The notes: generated from the letters alone by a model not told the origin. Counted from the first letter of the stretch, positions 17,050-63,133 are shown. The stretch: DNA of 64,000 nucleotides from Candidatus Bathyarchaeota archaeon (GCA_016930055.1 JAFGHP010000004.1:1857-65856), one strand, 5' to 3'. Numbers and translations: made by a program.

Positions 17050-17156
17050 GTGCCGGGGATGGGATTTGAACCCATGGTCTTTATCCGGATTGGGCGCTGG
17101 TGCCTAAATCCTCTGGATCATGAGTCCAGCGCATTAGCCAATCTATGCTACCCCGG
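17050..17156 (-). tRNA. tRNA-Met (anticodon CAT; elongator Met or Ile2-type) with a ~32-nt insertion between the anticodon stem and T-stem
   Basis: Hand fold. Acceptor GCCGGGG/CCCCGGC with discriminator A. D-arm GCAT-AGATTGGCTA-ATGC. Anticodon arm CTGGA-CTCATGA-TCCAG. T-arm ATGGG-TTCAAAT-CCCAT. 37 nt (17075..17111) sit where a 5-nt variable loop is expected. No encoded CCA. Confidence 0.8.
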
Positions 17157-17339
17157 CTCTTGCAGTCTCTACACCTTTCATAAATTTAAATGATGAGGCA
17201 AATATCACTATCAATTATAATTCTATTTAGTGTTTATTTACCTTAGCTTGAGATTGATTTTTTTGTATGGTTTCTTGGTTTTTTGTTAAAATATTTAAAT
17301 AGTTTAAAAGTAAATCTTGAATCGTTTGAGGTGTATTAA

Positions 17340-21981: not shown

Positions 21982-23106
21982 TCAAAAAAACTGGTTAAAA
22001 GGATATATTGTAAAAGGCCACTCGCTCCATCCAATAGCTGATGGCCAGTTAAACAGTATGAAAGGCAATGACATTAAACTTAGTAAGATAAAGTAAACTA
22101 GAAATGTGATAACAATTTCTTTTTTAGTTTCTGGTATAGATTTATTTATGATCAGTCTCAATGGTGAAGTAACAATATTTGTAATTATTTTAGGTAGAGG
22201 AAACAGAAAAGGCGTTTTTTCTCTATAAGTAGAATATTCAGTTTTGTTGTGTTCTAACATTTGGTTTTCTTCATTTAATGCGATACAGATTACAACTAAA
22301 TTTGATATCAACCAAGGGAGGCTTGCACCCGGGTTAGCTCCGCCTCTAACCACCGGAGTTAAAGATGCGAAGAGCATTATTCCATAACTCCAAATTAACC
22401 AACCAAGATATTGGGGATGACGTGAATATTTATATAACCAAAAATCTGCTACATTGTTTCCCTTGAAACGCGTATAAAACCATGCAATTGTACTCTGTAT
22501 AAAAATAAACGTTCCAAAAATAATTAAAAGATAAATTAATACTACTCTTAAATCTAAATGCATGTTACCCATATAAAAATGGGTTAATCTATTCTCGTGT
22601 AAAAATTTATAAAGAAAGAAATTGGAGTCTAAATTAACGAAAGAAGAAAAAAATGTAAGAATATAACTTATTAACATATAAGGAAGATAAATAATATCAC
22701 CTAATTTTAGTACATTAAGAGAAATTCCCCATAAAGGCATCCAAATAAGACGGAGAACCCCTAATCCTGATAAGAAAAACATGTAAGATACAAAATAACC
22801 AAATGTAGGCAAGAACATCATTATAGAACCAATCGTTGAAAAAGTTGTTTTTTTGGTAAGAAACCCAACAAGTATTAAAATTAAAATAATTCCTAAACAA
22901 CCATAACCTATTGGTCTTAAATTGTTTTTGACAATAAATTCCTCAATTAGATCAGGAGTTATCGCAGGATTATAATCTGGAATCTTCAAAAAATCTATTA
23001 AAAACCGATTTAATAGAATAGGAACTTCGAGAGTAAAAAAAGTTAATGCTATAGTAAATATTACAGCTAACCCTGTCAAACCAATAAGTGTACTTTTTTC
23101 TCTCAA
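21982..23106 (-). CDS. Polytopic membrane protein containing an ICMT/PEMT-type methyltransferase core
   Basis: YKYSRHPQYLGWLIWSYGIML carries the RHPxY-hh-G motif of isoprenylcysteine carboxyl/phospholipid methyltransferases, plus ...EE..L...F..Y..Y. It is embedded in a 374-aa multi-TM protein. Confidence 0.65.
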   Translation of the reverse strand: MREKSTLIGLTGLAVIFTIALTFFTLEVPILLNRFLIDFLKIPDYNPAITPDLIEEFIVKNNLRPIGYGCLGIILILILVGFLTKKTTFSTIGSIMMFLPTFGYFVSYMFFLSGLGVLRLIWMPLWGISLNVLKLGDIIYLPYMLISYILTFFSSFVNLDSNFFLYKFLHENRLTHFYMGNMHLDLRVVLIYLLIIFGTFIFIQSTIAWFYTRFKGNNVADFWLYKYSRHPQYLGWLIWSYGIMLFASLTPVVRGGANPGASLPWLISNLVVICIALNEENQMLEHNKTEYSTYREKTPFLFPLPKIITNIVTSPLRLIINKSIPETKKEIVITFLVYFILLSLMSLPFILFNWPSAIGWSEWPFTIYPFNQFF

Positions 23107-51181: not shown

Positions 51182-54100
51182 GTGAGGATAAGGGTAAAAG
51201 GCGCGAGAGAAAACAACCTCAAAAACATAGATGTCGAGTTTGGTGATGGTTTAACAGTCGTTACTGGTGTAAGTGGCAGCGGGAAGACCAGCTTGGTCTT
51301 CGATACCATTCATCACGAAGCTCAGAGAAGGATGTACGAAATCTTTACCTCTCGACGTTCAACTCCTATTGAACAACCCGCTAAAGTTGATAGCATCACA
51401 GGTATTGGACCAACTGTTGCTGTAGGTCAAAACTTGCTTAATAGGAACCCTAATAGTACTTTAGCAACAGCTAGTGGTTTGCATCCCTTCCTTAGGTTAT
51501 TATTTTCTAGATTCGGTACAAGAATCTGTGAAAGATGCTCTGAACCTCTAAATATTTTAACTGTTGATGAAATCGTCTCTGAAATTGCTAAAATAGAAGA
51601 TGATTGCTCTTTATTAGCTCCATTAATATTTAATTCAATTGGAAGCCATTCTGTATTACTAAGCTTACTTACCGAGAAATTTGGGTCTGAATCTCTCATT
51701 ATTGATGGAGAAAACTATAATGGTGAAAAACTTGATGCTCAGATTCTTCATAACATTGTTTTAAGATTAACATGTGTAAACAAAGAAACTAGTAGGAAGG
51801 AGATTAAAGAACAAATAGTAAAAGCAGAAGCTTTAGGATGTAATAATATAATAATTCAAGAAAAAGAAACGACATCAAGGTATAGCTCAACTAATATATG
51901 TCCTGTATGTGGTATGTGGTTTAAGCCAATTAATCCTCATGACTTCAATGAGAGATGTCCAAACTGTAATGGAATAGGATGTCCTCAATGTAAAAAAACG
52001 GGACTTAAACCAGAAGTTGTTAATGTTACATGGAAGAGGTATTCTTTCAAAACAATTCAAGATCTAGATGTAAATCAGGCATTACGACTATTTTATAATT
52101 CAACTCTACCAGAAGGTGCTGAGAGGCTTCTTAAAGAAATTGTAAAGCGTTTAGAGGCATTGAACCGGGTGGGTCTTGGATATATTCAGTTGAATAGATC
52201 TAGCCCAACATTATCAAGGGGCGAATCCCAGAGGGTTAGACTTGCAGTTTCTTTGAAAAGCGACCTCGAAGATATTCTTCATGTCTTAGATGAACCAACA
52301 ATTGGACAGCATCCTAGTGATGTATTAAGCTTAGTTTCTGCCTTTAGAGAGTTAAAGGGACCTGTAATTTACGTTGAACATGATAGGGTAGCTGCAGCAC
52401 TCGCTGACAATGTAGTTGATGTTGGACCAGGAGCAGGATCTAAGGGTGGAGAGATCGTGTTTTCAGGGAGTCCAGTTAAACTCTGGGAAGCTGATACTGT
52501 TTCTGGTCAATATTTTAGCTTACGGAAAAAACCAATACAGCCTAAAATGAAGCCTCTACCTTTGAAATATCTAACTATCAAAGGAGCAAACAAAAATAAT
52601 CTTAAAAATATTGATGTAAAAATTCCTTGGGAACGCTTAACAGTGGTAACTGGTGTTAGTGGAAGTGGTAAAAGCACTCTTATTGAGGATGTTTTAGTAA
52701 AATCTCTTTCCGATGGAAAACCTGTTGGTTGCCAAAGCATCGAAGATATTTTAGATCCGATACTTGTTGATCAGAGCCCGATAGGAAGGAACCCGCACTC
52801 AACTCCGGCTACTTATACAAAACTCAGCGAGTTACTTAGGAAATATTATGCTAAAAATACTGGACTCAGCACAAGCTGCTTTAGCTTTAACAGACCCGAA
52901 GGAGCTTGTCCTGAATGTGAGGGGATGGGAGCCATCGAAATTAAGATGCGTTACTTGCCTTCATGTTGGGTTACATGCACTTTATGTGAAGGTAGAAGAT
53001 TTAAACCGGAAATTGCTGAAAAAAAGCTTGAGTTTCATGATGTTCAACTTAGTATTGCTGATTTTTACGAGTTAACTGTAGAAGAAGCATACAAAGTACT
53101 ATCTGAAGCTAGAATTGAACATAAGCTGAAGAAGCAAATTCTAAACATACTCAAAGCCTTAAAAGACATTGGACTAGGATACTTGAGGTTAGGTCAACCA
53201 AGTCCCTCACTGTCTGGAGGAGAAGCTCAAAGAATTAAATTAGCAAAATATCTTGGACGAAGTAACTTAACCAATAAATTAATTCTGTTAGATGAACCTT
53301 CAACGGGGCTTCATCCTCAAGACATAACAAACCTTCTCAATGTGCTTGATAACCTTGTTGATAAGGGAGCCACAATTGTTGTAGTGGAGCATAACCTAGA
53401 CATAATCAGGTTTTCAGACTGGATAATAGATTTGGGTCCTGGTGCTGGGCCTTCAGGTGGAGAAGTATTATACAATGGTACAACGGATGAGTTTATCCAA
53501 AAAGCAAGATCATTGACAGCAAAAGCACTACGGGAAGAATCCAAGATTAAGCCAAAAGATGCCAGTCAAGAAGTATACAGTAAATTGGATAATATAGTTG
53601 TGAAAGGAGCCAAAGTTAACAACCTTAAAGACATTAATGTATCTTTTCCGAAAAATAAGATCACGGTAGTTACAGGTGTAAGTGGTTCAGGTAAAAGCAG
53701 TCTTGTTTCAGATACTTTGGAGGTTGAAGCGAAACGGAGATACCTCGAATCGCTATCAATGTATGAGAGGCAGGGAACTAAAGAGGGACCTGAAGCTCCT
53801 GTAGATGAAATTTCAGGATTGGGTGTAACTGTATCGATTACACCTGAAAGAAGGCTTTATAGTAGAAGAAGTACTGTTGGAACTGTTACTGAGATTGATC
53901 ATAATTTAGCAGTGCTCTTCTCCCTTCTGGGTAAAAAGCGATGCACAAACTGCGGAGAAGAGATGGTCAGAGACAAGGAATGGATCTGCCCATTATGTGG
54001 ATCAACTGCCTTAATCGCTGATTCGAATAAATTTGATCCCAAAAACTACTCCGCAGCTTGCACAAAATGTAATGGCGTAGGAACCCTTCAGAAGCCTAAC

Positions 54101-56023
54101 CCAAGTAAATTGATTATAAACCCTTCAAAACCCTTGTGCAGTGGAGCAATGTATAGTCCAGGATTCTTCCCACAAGGTTACCTATGTAAACCAGGGAATG
54201 GTGGATATGATGTTCTTCACGCATTCGCAGAGAAAAGAGGTTTTAGCCCTGAGGATACTCCTTGGAATCAGGTTCCTGAAGAGATTCAGAATATGTTTTA
54301 TTACGGAGATCCAGAGCCTATCGATGTAACTTTCAACAACTTAAAAGGAAGAATAAGTAATCGTACAGTCAAAATGCCTGGCTTCTATAGTGGTTATATT
54401 AGAGACTGGGATGTGGGAGGTACTTATACTGATATTGTGTCTTGCCCAGAATGCGGAGGTGCAAAACTACGTCCTGAATATTTAGAAGTTAAACTAACTG
54501 GATACAATATTTACCAACTTGAAAACCTTCCCCTTTCAGATCTAAGTAGAATAATAAATGAATTTGATGTCCCAAAAGGGCATATTGTTGAGACAAATTA
54601 TTCTACAATAAAAAACAGGTTGAGATTCTTAAATCAAGTTGGACTAAGTTACATAAATCTCAACAGAGTATCTGCAACACTTAGTGCAGGGGAAGCCCAG
54701 AGGATTAAACTTGCAGGACTATTAGGAAGTGGACTGACAAGTCTAACCATAATCCTAGATGAACCTTCGAGAGGTCTTCATCCGAGTGAAGTGAACGCTC
54801 TATTTGACGCTTTGAAGGAGCTATGTGATGAAGGAAATACTGTTATTATTGTTGAACACGATCCGGAAATAATACGAAAAGCAGATCACATCATTGAGTT
54901 GGGACCTGGACCAGGTGTAGCAGGCGGAAAAATTGTGGCTGAGGGTACTCCTGAAACTATAATTAAAGCAGGTACGGTAACGGGGAAATGGATTCAAAAA
55001 AACCTCATAAAAATATCACAAAAAAGGCGACAACCTAAAGGATGGATGAAAATAATAGGTGCTAAAGAGAACAACCTAAAAGACATTGAAACAAGAATAC
55101 CGCTAGGAGTATTAACTGGTATCTGTGGGGTATCTGGTAGTGGGAAAAGTACTTTAATAGTTGATACTTTGGGGAGAGCTCTTAATCCACAGAAACATAC
55201 TACAAGTGTAGCTAAAGAACCGTTAGAACCAGGAGCACATGACTCAATAATTGACCCCCCTAAAAATAATTTAGTTATTGATCAGACTCGTACTGGAATA
55301 AGTAATCCATCAAAATATCTTGGATTAGATAAGGAGTTGGCAAAGATTTACTCTGAAACAATCGAAGCTGTCTCCAGGGGAATAACTTTCAAACATCTTA
55401 TGGAACGGTGTGATGTATGTAGTGGATCAGGTACAGTTAGAATCGATATGGAATTCTTACCAGACATACATAGTGAATGTGAAGCATGTCGAGGAACTGG
55501 GTATAAACAAGAAGCATGGGATGTTAAACTCAACGATTTAAGCTTGCCAGAGTTAAACAGTTTAACCCTTACAGAAATTTATAATCTCTTCAAAGGGTAT
55601 CCTAGTTTAACCTCAAAGATTAAACCTGCATTGGATGTAGGTTTAGGATACCTTGTCTTAAACCAGCAATCATATACCCTTTCAGGAGGAGAAGCACAGC
55701 GTCTTAAAATAGCTGCAGAGTTGACAAAGAAGAAAGGGGATAATTGCTTATACATCCTTGATGAACCCAGCATCGGGCAGCATCTAGAAGACATAAAAAG
55801 GTTGAATGGAGTTCTGAATCAATTAGTAGATGAAGGTAATTCAGTGATTATTGTTGAGCATTGCCCCCAGATGCTAGTAAACTGCGATTGGTTACTGGAA
55901 CTTGGTCCAGTGGGTGGACCCGAAGGAGGTTACTTAATTGCAGAGGGAACACCAGAAACAGTCTCATGTAAAGACACACCTACTTCACCATATCTTAAAG
56001 TAATTTTGGAGGAATCAACATGA
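51182..56023 (+). CDS. UvrA-like ABC ATPase, tandemly duplicated (four nucleotide-binding modules, 1613 aa); GTG start
   Basis: Walker A GVSGSGK(T/S) at aa 29, 491, 832 and 1316. Four LS(R/G/A)GE(S/A)QR signatures. Four DEP(T/S) Walker B motifs. Each module is preceded by GA(R/N/K)xNNLK(N/D)I. Several CxxC zinc modules are present. Confidence 0.9.
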   Translation: MRIRVKGARENNLKNIDVEFGDGLTVVTGVSGSGKTSLVFDTIHHEAQRRMYEIFTSRRSTPIEQPAKVDSITGIGPTVAVGQNLLNRNPNSTLATASGLHPFLRLLFSRFGTRICERCSEPLNILTVDEIVSEIAKIEDDCSLLAPLIFNSIGSHSVLLSLLTEKFGSESLIIDGENYNGEKLDAQILHNIVLRLTCVNKETSRKEIKEQIVKAEALGCNNIIIQEKETTSRYSSTNICPVCGMWFKPINPHDFNERCPNCNGIGCPQCKKTGLKPEVVNVTWKRYSFKTIQDLDVNQALRLFYNSTLPEGAERLLKEIVKRLEALNRVGLGYIQLNRSSPTLSRGESQRVRLAVSLKSDLEDILHVLDEPTIGQHPSDVLSLVSAFRELKGPVIYVEHDRVAAALADNVVDVGPGAGSKGGEIVFSGSPVKLWEADTVSGQYFSLRKKPIQPKMKPLPLKYLTIKGANKNNLKNIDVKIPWERLTVVTGVSGSGKSTLIEDVLVKSLSDGKPVGCQSIEDILDPILVDQSPIGRNPHSTPATYTKLSELLRKYYAKNTGLSTSCFSFNRPEGACPECEGMGAIEIKMRYLPSCWVTCTLCEGRRFKPEIAEKKLEFHDVQLSIADFYELTVEEAYKVLSEARIEHKLKKQILNILKALKDIGLGYLRLGQPSPSLSGGEAQRIKLAKYLGRSNLTNKLILLDEPSTGLHPQDITNLLNVLDNLVDKGATIVVVEHNLDIIRFSDWIIDLGPGAGPSGGEVLYNGTTDEFIQKARSLTAKALREESKIKPKDASQEVYSKLDNIVVKGAKVNNLKDINVSFPKNKITVVTGVSGSGKSSLVSDTLEVEAKRRYLESLSMYERQGTKEGPEAPVDEISGLGVTVSITPERRLYSRRSTVGTVTEIDHNLAVLFSLLGKKRCTNCGEEMVRDKEWICPLCGSTALIADSNKFDPKNYSAACTKCNGVGTLQKPNPSKLIINPSKPLCSGAMYSPGFFPQGYLCKPGNGGYDVLHAFAEKRGFSPEDTPWNQVPEEIQNMFYYGDPEPIDVTFNNLKGRISNRTVKMPGFYSGYIRDWDVGGTYTDIVSCPECGGAKLRPEYLEVKLTGYNIYQLENLPLSDLSRIINEFDVPKGHIVETNYSTIKNRLRFLNQVGLSYINLNRVSATLSAGEAQRIKLAGLLGSGLTSLTIILDEPSRGLHPSEVNALFDALKELCDEGNTVIIVEHDPEIIRKADHIIELGPGPGVAGGKIVAEGTPETIIKAGTVTGKWIQKNLIKISQKRRQPKGWMKIIGAKENNLKDIETRIPLGVLTGICGVSGSGKSTLIVDTLGRALNPQKHTTSVAKEPLEPGAHDSIIDPPKNNLVIDQTRTGISNPSKYLGLDKELAKIYSETIEAVSRGITFKHLMERCDVCSGSGTVRIDMEFLPDIHSECEACRGTGYKQEAWDVKLNDLSLPELNSLTLTEIYNLFKGYPSLTSKIKPALDVGLGYLVLNQQSYTLSGGEAQRLKIAAELTKKKGDNCLYILDEPSIGQHLEDIKRLNGVLNQLVDEGNSVIIVEHCPQMLVNCDWLLELGPVGGPEGGYLIAEGTPETVSCKDTPTSPYLKVILEEST

Positions 56024-57039
56024 GCTGGGTACCTCTACTGTTAACTGATCACTCAACTTGCCTTAGGTACCTTGTACATAAAAACCTGTTAAATGATTCT
56101 GAAGCAGAAGAATTGAGAAATTTCCGTTTAAATGATCCCCTAATTAAAGATTTGACTATAAGGCAGCTGCCAGATGGATCGTGGGCACCAGCAAGTATTT
56201 ATGGTCATAGCCAGGGAAAAATCCAAGCAACCGCCCAAGCATTGACGCGGTTAGGTTATCTTGAGGTGCCATTTGGGCATGAATCAGTTAGGCGTGCAGC
56301 TGAATATCTTTTTAGTCAGCAGAAACCAGATGGTTCTTGGCCTCTGATTGAAAATAGCAACGATTCTGAAGATAAAGAGCATTACGATATAATGAGTTTA
56401 CAGACAAGCATACCTTTACGAGGTCTAGCTGAATCTGGATATTCAGAGGATCCTCGCAGTATGAGGGCTTATGAATGGTTACTTAATCAGCAGATGGAAG
56501 ATGGAGCATGGCCTACAGGCATTGCTAAGGGTGTTTATGGCTATGTAGCGGGATACCGGAGAATACCTCATAGTAGATGGGGATGTAGAAGCAACACAAC
56601 TGCAGCAGTAACCTGTCTAAGCCTTAATCAAAAACTAAGAAAAAGCACTGCAGCAAGAAGGGGACTAGATCTACTCTTAGGAAGAGAAACACGGGAAAGA
56701 ACCCCTCTTGGCTACGATATTGCTAGACTTGTTGGTTACGAACCCTCAACAGGCTTCATTACATACTATGCACGATTCGATAATGCTCACATTCTCAAAC
56801 TTTGTAGCAGACTAGAAGCAGGATTACATGATCCTAGAGTAAAAAATTTAGTGGAATACACGATTCAGGAGCAGGGAAGTTTTGGATTATGGGAATATTT
56901 ACCTAATCCTCAAGCAACAAAATGGGTTACTTATGACATTCTTTATAATTTGTCTCAAATAATGCCTACATCTGACTGGGAAACCTTAGAGCCACAAACC
57001 CCCTTCCAACCATACCCCAAGAAACGGAAGAGGTATTAG
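56020..57039 (+). CDS. Prenyltransferase/squalene-cyclase-repeat (QW-motif) alpha/alpha-toroid protein
   Basis: RAAEYLFSQQKPDGSW and RAYEWLLNQQMEDGAW fit the QW motif [KR][GA]xx[FYW][LIV]xxxQx(2-5)GxW. Two more degenerate copies are present. The ATG overlaps the upstream TGA as ATGA. GGAGGA lies 6-11 nt upstream. Confidence 0.7.
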   Translation: MSWVPLLLTDHSTCLRYLVHKNLLNDSEAEELRNFRLNDPLIKDLTIRQLPDGSWAPASIYGHSQGKIQATAQALTRLGYLEVPFGHESVRRAAEYLFSQQKPDGSWPLIENSNDSEDKEHYDIMSLQTSIPLRGLAESGYSEDPRSMRAYEWLLNQQMEDGAWPTGIAKGVYGYVAGYRRIPHSRWGCRSNTTAAVTCLSLNQKLRKSTAARRGLDLLLGRETRERTPLGYDIARLVGYEPSTGFITYYARFDNAHILKLCSRLEAGLHDPRVKNLVEYTIQEQGSFGLWEYLPNPQATKWVTYDILYNLSQIMPTSDWETLEPQTPFQPYPKKRKRY

Positions 57040-57257
57040 AATTAACGCATTTACTTTTAAAACGTCATATTCAAAAATATATTAAATATATTAATTTAAG
57101 GTTGTTATACAGTTCAATATTAACAGATAAATTAAACTAGTATAAGCTGGAAGAGTTAATCTAATAACCCTTACAAGAAAATAAGCTTTTTTTAAGGTTT
57201 TTTAGGTTTTTGGGTTTATGCGTAAACTTATATTAAAAAAATGTTTTATGAAAACCG

Positions 57258-57599
57258 ATGAACCTTTCTGTAATTGACGATAAAGATGTATTAATTAAAA
57301 CAGTCAGGGAGTTGGGTTTTAGTTACCATGAAACAGTAGATCTGTTAAATAACAGTTTAGTTGAAGCTAGAAATTCTAGAAGTCTTTGGAGAGGAAAAAA
57401 CGGTAAAGGCAATGCTCTGATACAGATTGGTGCATCATTATTTTTAGTACCGATACCTATTGTTACTGAAGCACTGGGTTTGATCCTGATGTCTGCTGGT
57501 CTTTTCCAATCGAAGATTCAGGGACCTCCCCTTTACATTGAGGATATCTATGACACTTGCGAAGAAATATCTAAAGAGTTGAGCAGAATTCTCCAATAA
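57258..57599 (+). CDS. Hypothetical small membrane protein
   Basis: 113-aa ORF with a central hydrophobic hairpin (ALIQIGASLFLVPIPIVTEALGLILMSAGLF). Confidence 0.4.
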   Translation: MNLSVIDDKDVLIKTVRELGFSYHETVDLLNNSLVEARNSRSLWRGKNGKGNALIQIGASLFLVPIPIVTEALGLILMSAGLFQSKIQGPPLYIEDIYDTCEEISKELSRILQ

Positions 57600-62317: not shown

Positions 62318-63133
62318 ATGGAGCTTCCTGAGATCTATCTTCTAAGCAGAGACATGTATAAGGAGCTTAAGGGGAAGACTGTGAATGATGTGGAGGTTAA
62401 GAACGTAAAATGCCTTAACCTTCCCTTTGAAGAGTTCAGAAGCATAATTGTTGGTAAAAAATTCCTTGGTGCTAAACCTAAAGGTAAGTGGGTTTCTCTC
62501 GAAATAGAAGACGAATATACTTTGTTATATAATACTGGTATGGGTGCTAATACAATCTATTATCAGAAAGATGATCAACCCCAAGAGACTTGGCACATAA
62601 AATTCAGGTTCGAAGATGGTTCAGGTTTCACTTCGAGGGTTTGGTGGTTCTGCTATCTTCACCTACTAAAAAACAGTGAATTAGCCAGTCATAAGATGAC
62701 AGCTAAGCTGGGTCCAACTCCCTTAGATAGCGACTTTAGTGAAGATTATCTAAATGGCTTATTTATTGCGAAGAGGAGCTCAGTTAAGAACATTTTAATG
62801 GATCAGAGTAAAGTTGCTGGAATAGGAAATGTGTACATTCATGACCCATTATTCTTAGCTAATGTTCATCCACTTAGACAGGCAAACACAATTACTAGGG
62901 ATGAACTTACGAAGCTTTATGCTAGTATCAAGACAGTAATCAATGAAAGCATCTCTTGTGGTGGATTAGCTTATGAAGTTAATTTTTATGGGGTTAAAGG
63001 AGATTATGGCAAGAATCGTTATAGAGTGGCGTATAAGGAAGGAGAAGCCTGCCCAATCTGTGGAGAAACAATACAGAAAATTAAGACTGGTTCAACAAGC
63101 AGCTACATCTGTCCTAAATGTCAGCCACTTTGA
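62318..63133 (+). CDS. Fpg/Nei-family DNA glycosylase homolog (H2TH plus C-terminal zinc finger), lacking the N-terminal Pro
   Basis: MELPEI (canonical is MPELPEV), PKGKWVSL (compare RRGKYL), the H2TH region LMDQSKVAGIGNVYIHDPLF and CPICG...CPKCQ. Confidence 0.8.
   Translation: MELPEIYLLSRDMYKELKGKTVNDVEVKNVKCLNLPFEEFRSIIVGKKFLGAKPKGKWVSLEIEDEYTLLYNTGMGANTIYYQKDDQPQETWHIKFRFEDGSGFTSRVWWFCYLHLLKNSELASHKMTAKLGPTPLDSDFSEDYLNGLFIAKRSSVKNILMDQSKVAGIGNVYIHDPLFLANVHPLRQANTITRDELTKLYASIKTVINESISCGGLAYEVNFYGVKGDYGKNRYRVAYKEGEACPICGETIQKIKTGSTSSYICPKCQPL

Follow-up and report, generated by a model that had tools for sequence, protein, structure and literature searches.

What joins a UvrA-type DNA-scanning ATPase to a protein with the fold of the terpene cyclases is the question raised by two adjacent genes in a 64,000-nucleotide (nt) stretch of DNA from a Candidatus Bathyarchaeota archaeon (JAFGHP010000004.1:1857-65856; this whole stretch is hereafter the window). 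The first gene (51182..56023, + strand) encodes a fused double UvrA of 1613 aa with four ABC nucleotide-binding domains (NBDs), recognized from its open reading frame (ORF), NCBIfam and Protein Data Bank (PDB) matches and motifs. The second (56020..57039, +) encodes a monodomain alpha/alpha toroid of 339 aa belonging to a UvrA-linked clade, recognized from its ORF, a match to Pfam PF13243, an AlphaFold2 (AF2) model and Foldseek. The two genes form a unit that is inherited together, has moved as a whole between Archaea and Bacteria, and is built for coupled translation. Textbook accounts of bacterial excision repair begin with UvrA, and the few studied UvrA paralogues, Ecm16 and DrrC among them, act alone. 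To our knowledge, UvrB and Mfd are the only established partners of UvrA, and the terpene-cyclase fold has no known role on DNA. Public databases label the pair in general terms only ("excinuclease ABC subunit A", "ATP-binding cassette domain-containing protein", "terpene cyclase/mutase family protein" and "hypothetical protein"), and full-text literature searches, with the ABC-ATPase classification of Krishnan et al. 2020 outside their coverage, returned no published description of UvrA linked to a terpene-cyclase-like or alpha/alpha-toroid protein. The known part of the system looks like a UvrA-family DNA-scanning ATPase, and what looks new is its fused asymmetric architecture together with a dedicated partner whose fold class is not known to have been linked with DNA transactions before.

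Linkage, coupling and co-divergence of the two genes

The stop codon of the double UvrA gene and the start codon of the toroid gene share an ATGA overlap (56020..56023, +), which is a translational coupling signal. A Shine-Dalgarno (SD)-like GGAGGA lies within the 3' end of the UvrA gene (56008..56013, +), 6 nt before the toroid ATG. The original prediction, made from the sequence of the window, had described this ORF, its overlap and the GGAGGA, and all of them were located. Among 45 non-redundant full-length pairs from Archaea and Bacteria, the exact 4-bp overlap is present in 40, and an SD-like GGAG, GAGG or AGGA occurs no more than 20 nt upstream of the toroid start in 40/45 loci. The conserved SD-like motif is mostly tTGGAGG and is encoded by the C-terminal Leu-Glu-Glu/Gly codons of UvrA.

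An initial scan, in which each GTDB species was represented by one genome, returned 12 close toroid loci, all of which carry a double UvrA immediately upstream (51-56% identity, full length where the contig permits). A profile scan then found a toroid relative in 168 species-level genomes, and the best 80 of the 168 were taken into a locus survey. This survey covered 94 loci, of which five are uninformative because the toroid lies at the edge of the contig, and the double UvrA is directly upstream of the toroid in ~85 of the 89 informative loci. The association of the toroid with long UvrA genes that had been suggested for the window is thus general in the survey. Apparent gaps in some long-read metagenome-assembled genomes (MAGs) are frameshift-split high-scoring segment pairs. 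In one Anaerolineae MAG (L111:2904-3917, +), a 337-aa gene corresponding to the last NBD of the double UvrA has the 4-bp overlap with the toroid start; this short upstream gene may reflect a truncated form of the double UvrA or an error of assembly. The reverse lookup agrees, as three of three double UvrAs have a 343-346-aa SQHop_cyclase_C gene directly downstream. All-against-all clustering of the neighbouring ORFs identified the toroid and the double UvrA as the only genes common to all 45 non-redundant loci. A universal third gene was considered and rejected, since the clusters spanning 37 and 26 loci consist of shadow ORFs on the antisense strand of uvrA.

The pairwise-identity matrices of UvrA and toroid are correlated (r = 0.93, Mantel p = 0.001), and the mean pairwise identities are nearly equal, at 57.6% for UvrA and 56.7% for the toroid. 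The mean identity of the cassette between Archaea and Bacteria is 0.55, compared to 0.59-0.61 within a domain, and the cassettes of Bathyarchaeia group with Chloroflexota and Aminicenantes cassettes and not with Asgard ones. Because cross-domain identity is so close to within-domain identity and the Bathyarchaeia cluster in this way, the cassette has moved between Archaea and Bacteria as a unit. The archaeal carriers include Bathyarchaeia, Promethearchaeota (Loki) and Thor-, Heimdall-, Hod- and Hermodarchaeota. The bacterial carriers include Chloroflexota (Anaerolineae and others), Aminicenantes, Zixibacteria, KSB1 and Gemmatimonadota, and the module is conserved at 50-65% identity across domains.

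Architecture of the double UvrA and the toroid

The NCBIfam UvrA models match the 1613-aa protein with 1345 and 1330 bits, exceeding the equivalog cut-off of 1147. The best PDB matches are class I UvrA proteins (E 2.6e-170), with Ecm16 and Deinococcus UvrA2 lower. Walker A motifs (GVSGSGK[ST]) are found at residues 29, 491, 832 and 1316, signature motifs (LS[RGA]GE) at residues 344, 677, 1167 and 1500, and Walker B motifs (DEP) at residues 368, 700, 1190 and 1525. These four complete ATP-site motif sets are near-invariant in 45 double-UvrA homologues, the set to which the conservation values below refer. The two UvrA halves share 37% identity with each other. Half 1 only features a divergent UvrB-binding-type domain (UvrA_inter-like, Pfam PF17760) at residues ~127-228 (51560..51865, +), which is flanked by C116xxC and C240xxC. 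The match of this domain to the profile spans positions 2-108 of 109 at 22.3 bits, just short of the cut-off of 23.3, and PF17760 is precomputed for many members of the double-UvrA family. It is the least conserved region of the UvrA, with a mean of 0.49 vs 0.68 overall. Half 2 only features the UvrA insertion (DNA-binding) domain (PF17755, 28.6 bits vs a cut-off of 23.2) at residues ~976-1068 (54107..54385, +), flanked by C960xxC and C1088xxC; this domain is well conserved, with a mean of 0.72 and 27 invariant positions. In place of the insertion domain, half 1 has a short Cys4 knuckle (C259/C262/C267/C270). Half 2 is without the UvrB-binding domain, with 12 residues separating the end of C921xxC from the start of C936xxC. 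The zinc modules are conserved, and the first zinc module (Zn1) is retained in half 1. On these domain assignments the halves are complementary in their losses, with the insertion domain gone from half 1 and the UvrB-binding domain from half 2, and the double UvrA, all four of whose ATP sites are intact, is predicted to be an asymmetric pseudo-dimer in a single chain. In two Promethearchaeota loci (L004:554-3055 and L005:561-3059, both +), an extra single-length UvrA of 833 aa is encoded directly upstream of the double UvrA, placing three UvrA units in a row. The 833-aa protein has the insertion domain and no UvrB-binding domain, which is class II architecture.

The toroid passes the Pfam model SQHop_cyclase_C (PF13243; 43 bits, cut-off 26.1, E 3.8e-11), matches SQHop_cyclase_N marginally (28.5 bits), and has sub-threshold Pfam matches to TED_complement (19 bits) and Pec_lyase. 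No match to PF00432 (Prenyltrans) or LANC_like was obtained at E <= 1, and the NCBIfam cyclase models TIGR01507, TIGR01787 and TIGR03463 give 40-43 bits, far under their cut-offs of 322-851. The strict QW regular expression matches the toroid at RAAEYLFSQQKPDGSW (residues 92-107) and RAYEWLLNQQMEDGAW (residues 149-164), both within 56293..56511 (+). Looser Q..G.W motifs start at residues 49 and 283, giving four Q..G.W motifs in all, so that the two textbook and two degenerate QW motifs described earlier for this protein hold up; at least one Q..G.W is present in all 95 family sequences. When the family profile is searched against the PDB, squalene-hopene cyclase (SHC) is matched at E 1.5e-18, with the sequence alignment confined to the QW region (query 75-170 vs SHC 497-593). 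The AF2 model, built with 50 homologues, has 14 helices, a mean pLDDT of 82.9 and a pTM of 0.84, with low confidence restricted to residues 113-120, 176-184 and 317-331. Foldseek against the PDB matches it to SHC, oxidosqualene cyclase (OSC), drimenyl-diphosphate synthase, MstE, thioester domains (TED/C3d) and the hydrolase MmpH, with a probability of 1.00 yet E values of ~1e-4 and TM-scores of about 0.43-0.49. The alpha/alpha-toroid fold first proposed from the QW motifs is in agreement with this model and with its SHC, OSC, MstE and TED matches. The TM-scores of 0.44-0.49 and the restriction of SHC similarity to the QW region indicate a distant member of the fold class.

A regular-expression search of the window toroid found none of the motifs DxDD, DDxxD, CxEQ, CHG or WCxG, which confirms that the DxDD/DDxxD and Zn-ligand motifs not seen by eye in the original prediction are indeed lacking. 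DxDD occurs in only 6/95 homologues and at non-conserved positions, and the CxEQ thioester motif, CHG and WCxG each occur in 0/95 family sequences. A Zn site composed of H184/C189/C199/H203 is not supported, as H203 is replaced by N in the window protein and C199 by A in P0254 and P0263. A Cys-Asn thioester (C189/N192, i/i+3), considered by analogy with the CGEQ of TED proteins, was likewise rejected, given that S replaces N192 in L009 and T replaces it in P0263, and that CxEQ is found nowhere in the family. The toroid has no transmembrane (TM) segment, as had been stated, with a maximum Kyte-Doolittle 19-residue mean of 0.73. By motif, the toroid is neither a cyclase, a prenyltransferase, a LanC protein nor a TED protein, and the model is that of a distant alpha/alpha toroid without the catalytic signatures of each characterised toroid enzyme class tested.

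Three elements set the UvrA-linked toroids apart. The first is a basic/aromatic block, GYVAGYRRxPHSRWGCRSNTT, at residues 174-194 (56539..56601, +), in which G174, V176, A177, G178, Y179, R180, H184, S185, R186, G188, C189, R190, N192 and T193 are invariant or nearly so across 50 homologues. The second is a clade-specific 16-residue insert at residues 239-254 with the pattern G-x-E-x3-G-F-x-T-Y-Y-A-R-F-D. The third is a conserved C-terminal tail, W-x3-EPxTPFQPYPxKRKR(Y/F), which is encoded at 56977..57036 (+) and is predicted by AF2 to be disordered. The tail reads D-W-x2-L-E-P-R-T-P-F-Q-P-Y-P-x-K-R-K-R-F/Y in the family alignment, with W320, P325, P328, F329, Y332 and R338 invariant; the basic PKKRKRY end noted in the window protein is therefore both present and a family feature. 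The block and the tail hold most of the local positive charge. The pLDDT is <50 at residues 317-331 in the tail and low at residues 176-184 in the block, and such a combination of high conservation and low AF2 confidence is a pattern typical of segments that become ordered on partner binding.

An exhaustive hidden Markov model (HMM) search of 1.84 billion representatives resolves the family into ~14 clusters of full-length proteins (330-378 aa, clustered at 50% identity) and a set of fragments, below which the scores fall steeply to generic SHC-like proteins at ~100 bits. A Rosetta-stone search found no UvrA-toroid fusion among these 1.84 billion representatives. Two candidates, P0242 and P0349, were rejected as true fusions because they resemble chimeric or frameshifted gene predictions that run across the junction. 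Among full-length proteins the closest to the family is P0376, a member of a large family of stand-alone proteins (~335 aa; >1200 members at E <= 1e-10). This sister family, found in Heimdallarchaeota, Anaerolineae and others, resembles the UvrA-linked clade in size, N-terminal helices and QW pattern (~21-26% identity), and its taxa overlap those of the clade. It differs in having no UvrA neighbour in the three loci inspected, which have unrelated contexts, and it is without the GYRRxxHSRWGCRSNTT block, the residue 239-254 insert and the C-terminal tail.

Proposed role and alternative explanations

We favour, with moderate confidence in the model as a whole, a module in which a self-contained DNA-scanning ATPase works on DNA with a non-cyclase toroid as its partner or effector. 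UvrA dimers scan duplex DNA, with UvrB and Mfd docking on the UvrB-binding domain (PMC7835731), and class IIa paralogues act without UvrB or UvrC (PMC9328131). This established UvrA biology and the conserved anatomy described above are the basis for viewing the fused protein as an intramolecular, distortion-sensing UvrA dimer. The 1613-aa pseudo-dimer would bind and scan duplex DNA for distortions by means of its four ATP sites. Since one docking domain (half 1) is combined with one insertion, or DNA-clamping, domain (half 2), a single partner site on UvrA would be expected, and the toroid, made in roughly equal amounts, would be the partner at this site. The rigid QW-stapled ring of the toroid would be a scaffold for the Arg/aromatic/His/Cys loop, the 16-residue insert and the disordered basic tail, and the secondary-structure topology suggests that the loop lies at the mouth of the ring. 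The toroid is predicted to contact the UvrA-DNA complex through this basic loop and the tail. It would verify, process or remove what UvrA finds, either a bulky lesion or a DNA-bound ligand, and would act at the position held by UvrB in canonical excision repair.

A narrower proposal is that the toroid is a lesion verifier or processing enzyme that replaces UvrB, and perhaps UvrC or a glycosylase. In this proposal the toroid is loaded at the single site by the asymmetric UvrA, has candidate Cys189/His184/Arg chemistry, and serves a UvrB-independent repair or direct-reversal pathway; we consider it tentative and, in its full form, rather doubtful. Should the toroid act on DNA or on DNA-bound ligands, it would be a new effector class in DNA surveillance, and the fused protein would make the way in which UvrA asymmetry guides the loading of partners tractable in a single chain. 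A UvrB-independent pathway, if real, would be common to Asgard archaea, Bathyarchaeia and several bacterial phyla.

A number of observations weigh against the DNA-scanning module. One Chloroflexia locus (L103:6986-8032, +) encodes a full-length toroid but no UvrA in the 7 kb to either side of it, and it is the only clear exception to the pairing among the informative loci. In three further loci (L088, L127 and L132) the two genes are 1-2.7 kb apart, with ORFs in the gap at L127 and L132. The reverse lookup comprises three loci, and the locus survey drew on the best 80 of the 168 toroid-bearing genomes, the other 88 being more distant. No conserved nuclease, helicase or ligase is present in the cassette among the 45 loci, and as a consequence excision would need host factors, or else the outcome is not excision. 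The UvrA_inter-like domain may not be the docking site, given its low conservation (0.49) and its sub-threshold Pfam score. The interaction between UvrA and the toroid is a prediction from gene linkage and conservation, and the predicted contact of the toroid with DNA follows from the character of the sequence only, with a mean isoelectric point (pI) of ~6.7.

The best-surviving alternative is a resistance module, which we consider unlikely. Here the double UvrA would strip an intercalator or groove binder from DNA in the manner of class IIa UvrA, without UvrB or UvrC, and the toroid would capture or inactivate the released hydrophobic molecule. Half 2 does have the class II architecture, with the insertion domain and without the UvrB-binding domain; the best UvrA sequence matches are nevertheless to class I and not to Ecm16 or UvrA2. 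Ecm16 confers resistance independently of UvrB, UvrC and UvrD and in an ATPase-dependent manner (PMC9328131). Toroids of the terpene-cyclase and TED types bind polycyclic or reactive ligands, and the horizontal spread of the cassette among sediment dwellers is consistent with a resistance role, but the neighbourhoods of the 45 loci have no biosynthetic gene cluster or transporter in common. A VOC gene after the toroid in nine Asgard loci keeps a toxic-electrophile or drug theme open, although it is restricted to one lineage and to 9/45 loci. The residues that define the clade are also not those of such a pocket. The original prediction had suggested that the toroid could bind a small molecule or a lesion, for example as a sink for a displaced DNA-binding metabolite, and this role is neither supported nor refuted. 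The clade residues R180, R181, H184, R186, C189 and R190 and the KRKRF tail are polar or basic, in place of the aromatic or hydrophobic lining expected of a terpenoid or intercalator pocket, and for this reason they lean towards contact with DNA or UvrA over a hydrophobic sink. If the pair is a drug or xenobiotic resistance module, it would be a widespread and mobile one in anoxic sediments.

An accessory role in canonical nucleotide excision repair (NER) is less likely again. The double UvrA would pass lesions to host UvrB and UvrC encoded elsewhere, and the toroid would have an adaptor or regulatory role, such as directing the sensor to certain lesions, to chromatin proteins or to stalled machines. 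This explanation accounts for the UvrB-binding-type domain kept in half 1, but that domain is divergent and poorly conserved. The protein exceeds the NCBIfam UvrA equivalog (1345 bits vs 1147), and NCBIfam already holds a double-length UvrA (NF001885/PRK00635), so that fusion alone does not imply a new pathway. An Fpg/Nei glycosylase is also encoded 5 kb downstream in the window. On the other side, uvrB and uvrC are never found in the conserved neighbourhood of the 45 loci, and the conserved feature is strict 1:1 coupling to the toroid and not to UvrB.

Anti-phage or anti-plasmid defence, with the ABC-ATPase sensing foreign or modified DNA and the toroid as effector by analogy with two-gene ATPase-effector systems, is improbable. 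The compact two-gene cassette and its cross-domain transfer would suit such a system, toxin-antitoxin genes are located beside the cassette in two Aminicenantes-type loci, and a PADLOC search matches the double UvrA to mad3 (E 2.5e-119) and mad8 of the MADS system. The mad3 and mad8 matches, however, are generic UvrA/ABC similarity, and the toroid has no match in PADLOC-DB v2. An identity of 50-65% across domains is very high for a defence gene, the neighbourhoods are mostly housekeeping and variable between loci, and the cassette has no nuclease or other toxic effector domain.

It is most improbable that the toroid is simply a class II terpene cyclase of the monodomain type, or a prenyl-binding enzyme, whose position beside UvrA has no meaning: the Pfam SQHop_cyclase_C model is passed and monodomain examples exist (MstE, 351 aa, TM 0.49 to the model), but there is no DxDD or other conserved acidic motif, the NCBIfam cyclase scores are 40-43 bits vs 322-851, no isoprenoid genes are conserved nearby, and both Archaea and Bacteria keep the adjacency, the 4-bp overlap and the co-divergence.

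Genomic surroundings and comparison with known systems

Homology searches place the closest homologues in Bathyarchaeia. The sole tRNA in the window (17051-17157, -; Rfam 59.5 bits), which was missed by ARAGORN in bacterial mode, is 107 nt in length, and this length implies an intron. The intron-sized tRNA and the Bathyarchaeia as nearest homologues identify the host as archaeal. The genes around the pair in the window are housekeeping in nature and encode MBL-fold, CBS, RidA-like, SufBD/SufC, UbiA, Fpg/Nei and PAP2 proteins. The GC content of the pair (0.38-0.41) equals that of the flanking genes with no compositional anomaly, and a recent acquisition judged by composition was therefore rejected. 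Following the toroid stop codon is an AT-rich spacer with oligo-T runs (57040..57257, no strand assigned; GC 0.32), which is likely the end of the operon; oligo-T termination is assumed at this position because the host is archaeal. A terminator scan found no bacterial-type hairpin terminators. A sigma-70 scan for an internal promoter showed no enrichment (16 found vs 19.1 expected), and the sigma-70 model is inapplicable to an archaeal host. The next ORF downstream (57258-57599, +) encodes 113 aa, has no Pfam match and is not conserved at other loci, and it is probably a separate transcription unit as it lies beyond the 218-nt AT-rich spacer. The Fpg/Nei DNA glycosylase gene, 5 kb downstream of the pair (62318-63133, +), is complete, with the N-terminal domain, H2TH and zinc finger, and it is not conserved with the cassette at other loci. 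The ORF at 21982-23106 (-) had been called an ICMT-family gene and set aside as not linked. The lack of linkage stands, and the ICMT assignment does not, with 21.3 bits falling below the cut-off of 24 and a marginal match to DUF1295 (22.6 bits vs 20.4). This ICMT-like gene was rejected as part of the system, being a sub-threshold match 33 kb distant that is not conserved with the pair.

At other loci, several lineage-restricted neighbours were recorded. In the nine Asgard loci (Loki/Hermod/Hod) with a VOC gene (PF00903, glyoxalase/bleomycin-resistance), namely L005 (9083-9493, +), L102, L114, L115, L123, L124, L138, L145 and L149, the gene encodes 134-137 aa and lies downstream of the toroid on the same strand. 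The spacing from the toroid is ~50-75 nt in eight of these loci and ~960 nt in L123, and the copies are 72-77% identical to the L005 protein. The VOC gene may be a lineage-specific third component or local synteny. In the two Aminicenantes-type loci (L152 and L154), the toxin-antitoxin-like genes directly upstream of the double UvrA encode HicA, Gp49/HTH, and HTH-M78 with DUF3368, and both loci have a PPDK gene downstream on the opposite strand. A Peptidase_S58 (DmpA-type) gene is found just upstream of the double UvrA in six loci (L070:4137-5168, +, and five related Bathyarchaeia). The same type of gene is also just upstream of a sister-family toroid in an Anaerolineae locus (L157:5970-6968), which may be coincidence.

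Among known toroids, SHC and MstE share QW motifs and the alpha/alpha-toroid fold with the UvrA-linked toroid, and the monodomain MstE (351 aa) is close to its ~340 aa. The toroid differs from both in lacking DxDD or a catalytic Asp motif, in its TM-scores of 0.44-0.49, in its basic and polar clade residues and in having no isoprenoid context. The TED domains of complement C3 and alpha-2-macroglobulin are of the same fold class (Foldseek probability 1.00, TM 0.43-0.49); unlike them, the toroid has no CxEQ, is below the Pfam TED cut-off and is a cytoplasmic single-domain protein.

Among known UvrA proteins, the NF001885/PRK00635 family (1809-aa model) resembles the double UvrA in being a fused, duplicated UvrA. 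The double UvrA scores 943 bits against NF001885, where the cut-off is 3054, and thus belongs to a different family. We know of no toroid partner for the NF001885/PRK00635 family. Class IIa UvrA paralogues are UvrA-derived ATPases without the UvrB-binding domain that function outside canonical NER; they are defined as single-length, without the first zinc module and the UvrB-binding domain, and as conferring drug resistance alone (PMC9328131). Half 2 of the double UvrA shares the class IIa architecture of Ecm16, DrrC and Deinococcus UvrA2 (PDB 7sh1, E 9e-139; 2vf7, E 3.5e-137). The double UvrA itself falls outside this class IIa definition, since it is double-length and its half 1 keeps Zn1 and the UvrB-binding-type domain. 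Class IIa UvrA proteins form homodimers of single-length chains, lack a gene for a dedicated partner and in many cases belong to antibiotic biosynthetic clusters, whereas the double UvrA is fused and almost always paired with the toroid. Class I UvrA has in common with the double UvrA the tandem ABC ATPase motifs, the zinc modules, the insertion domain and the UvrB-binding-type domain. The double UvrA differs from it in being two fused units, each minus one accessory domain, and in having the alpha/alpha toroid and not UvrB as its conserved genomic partner.

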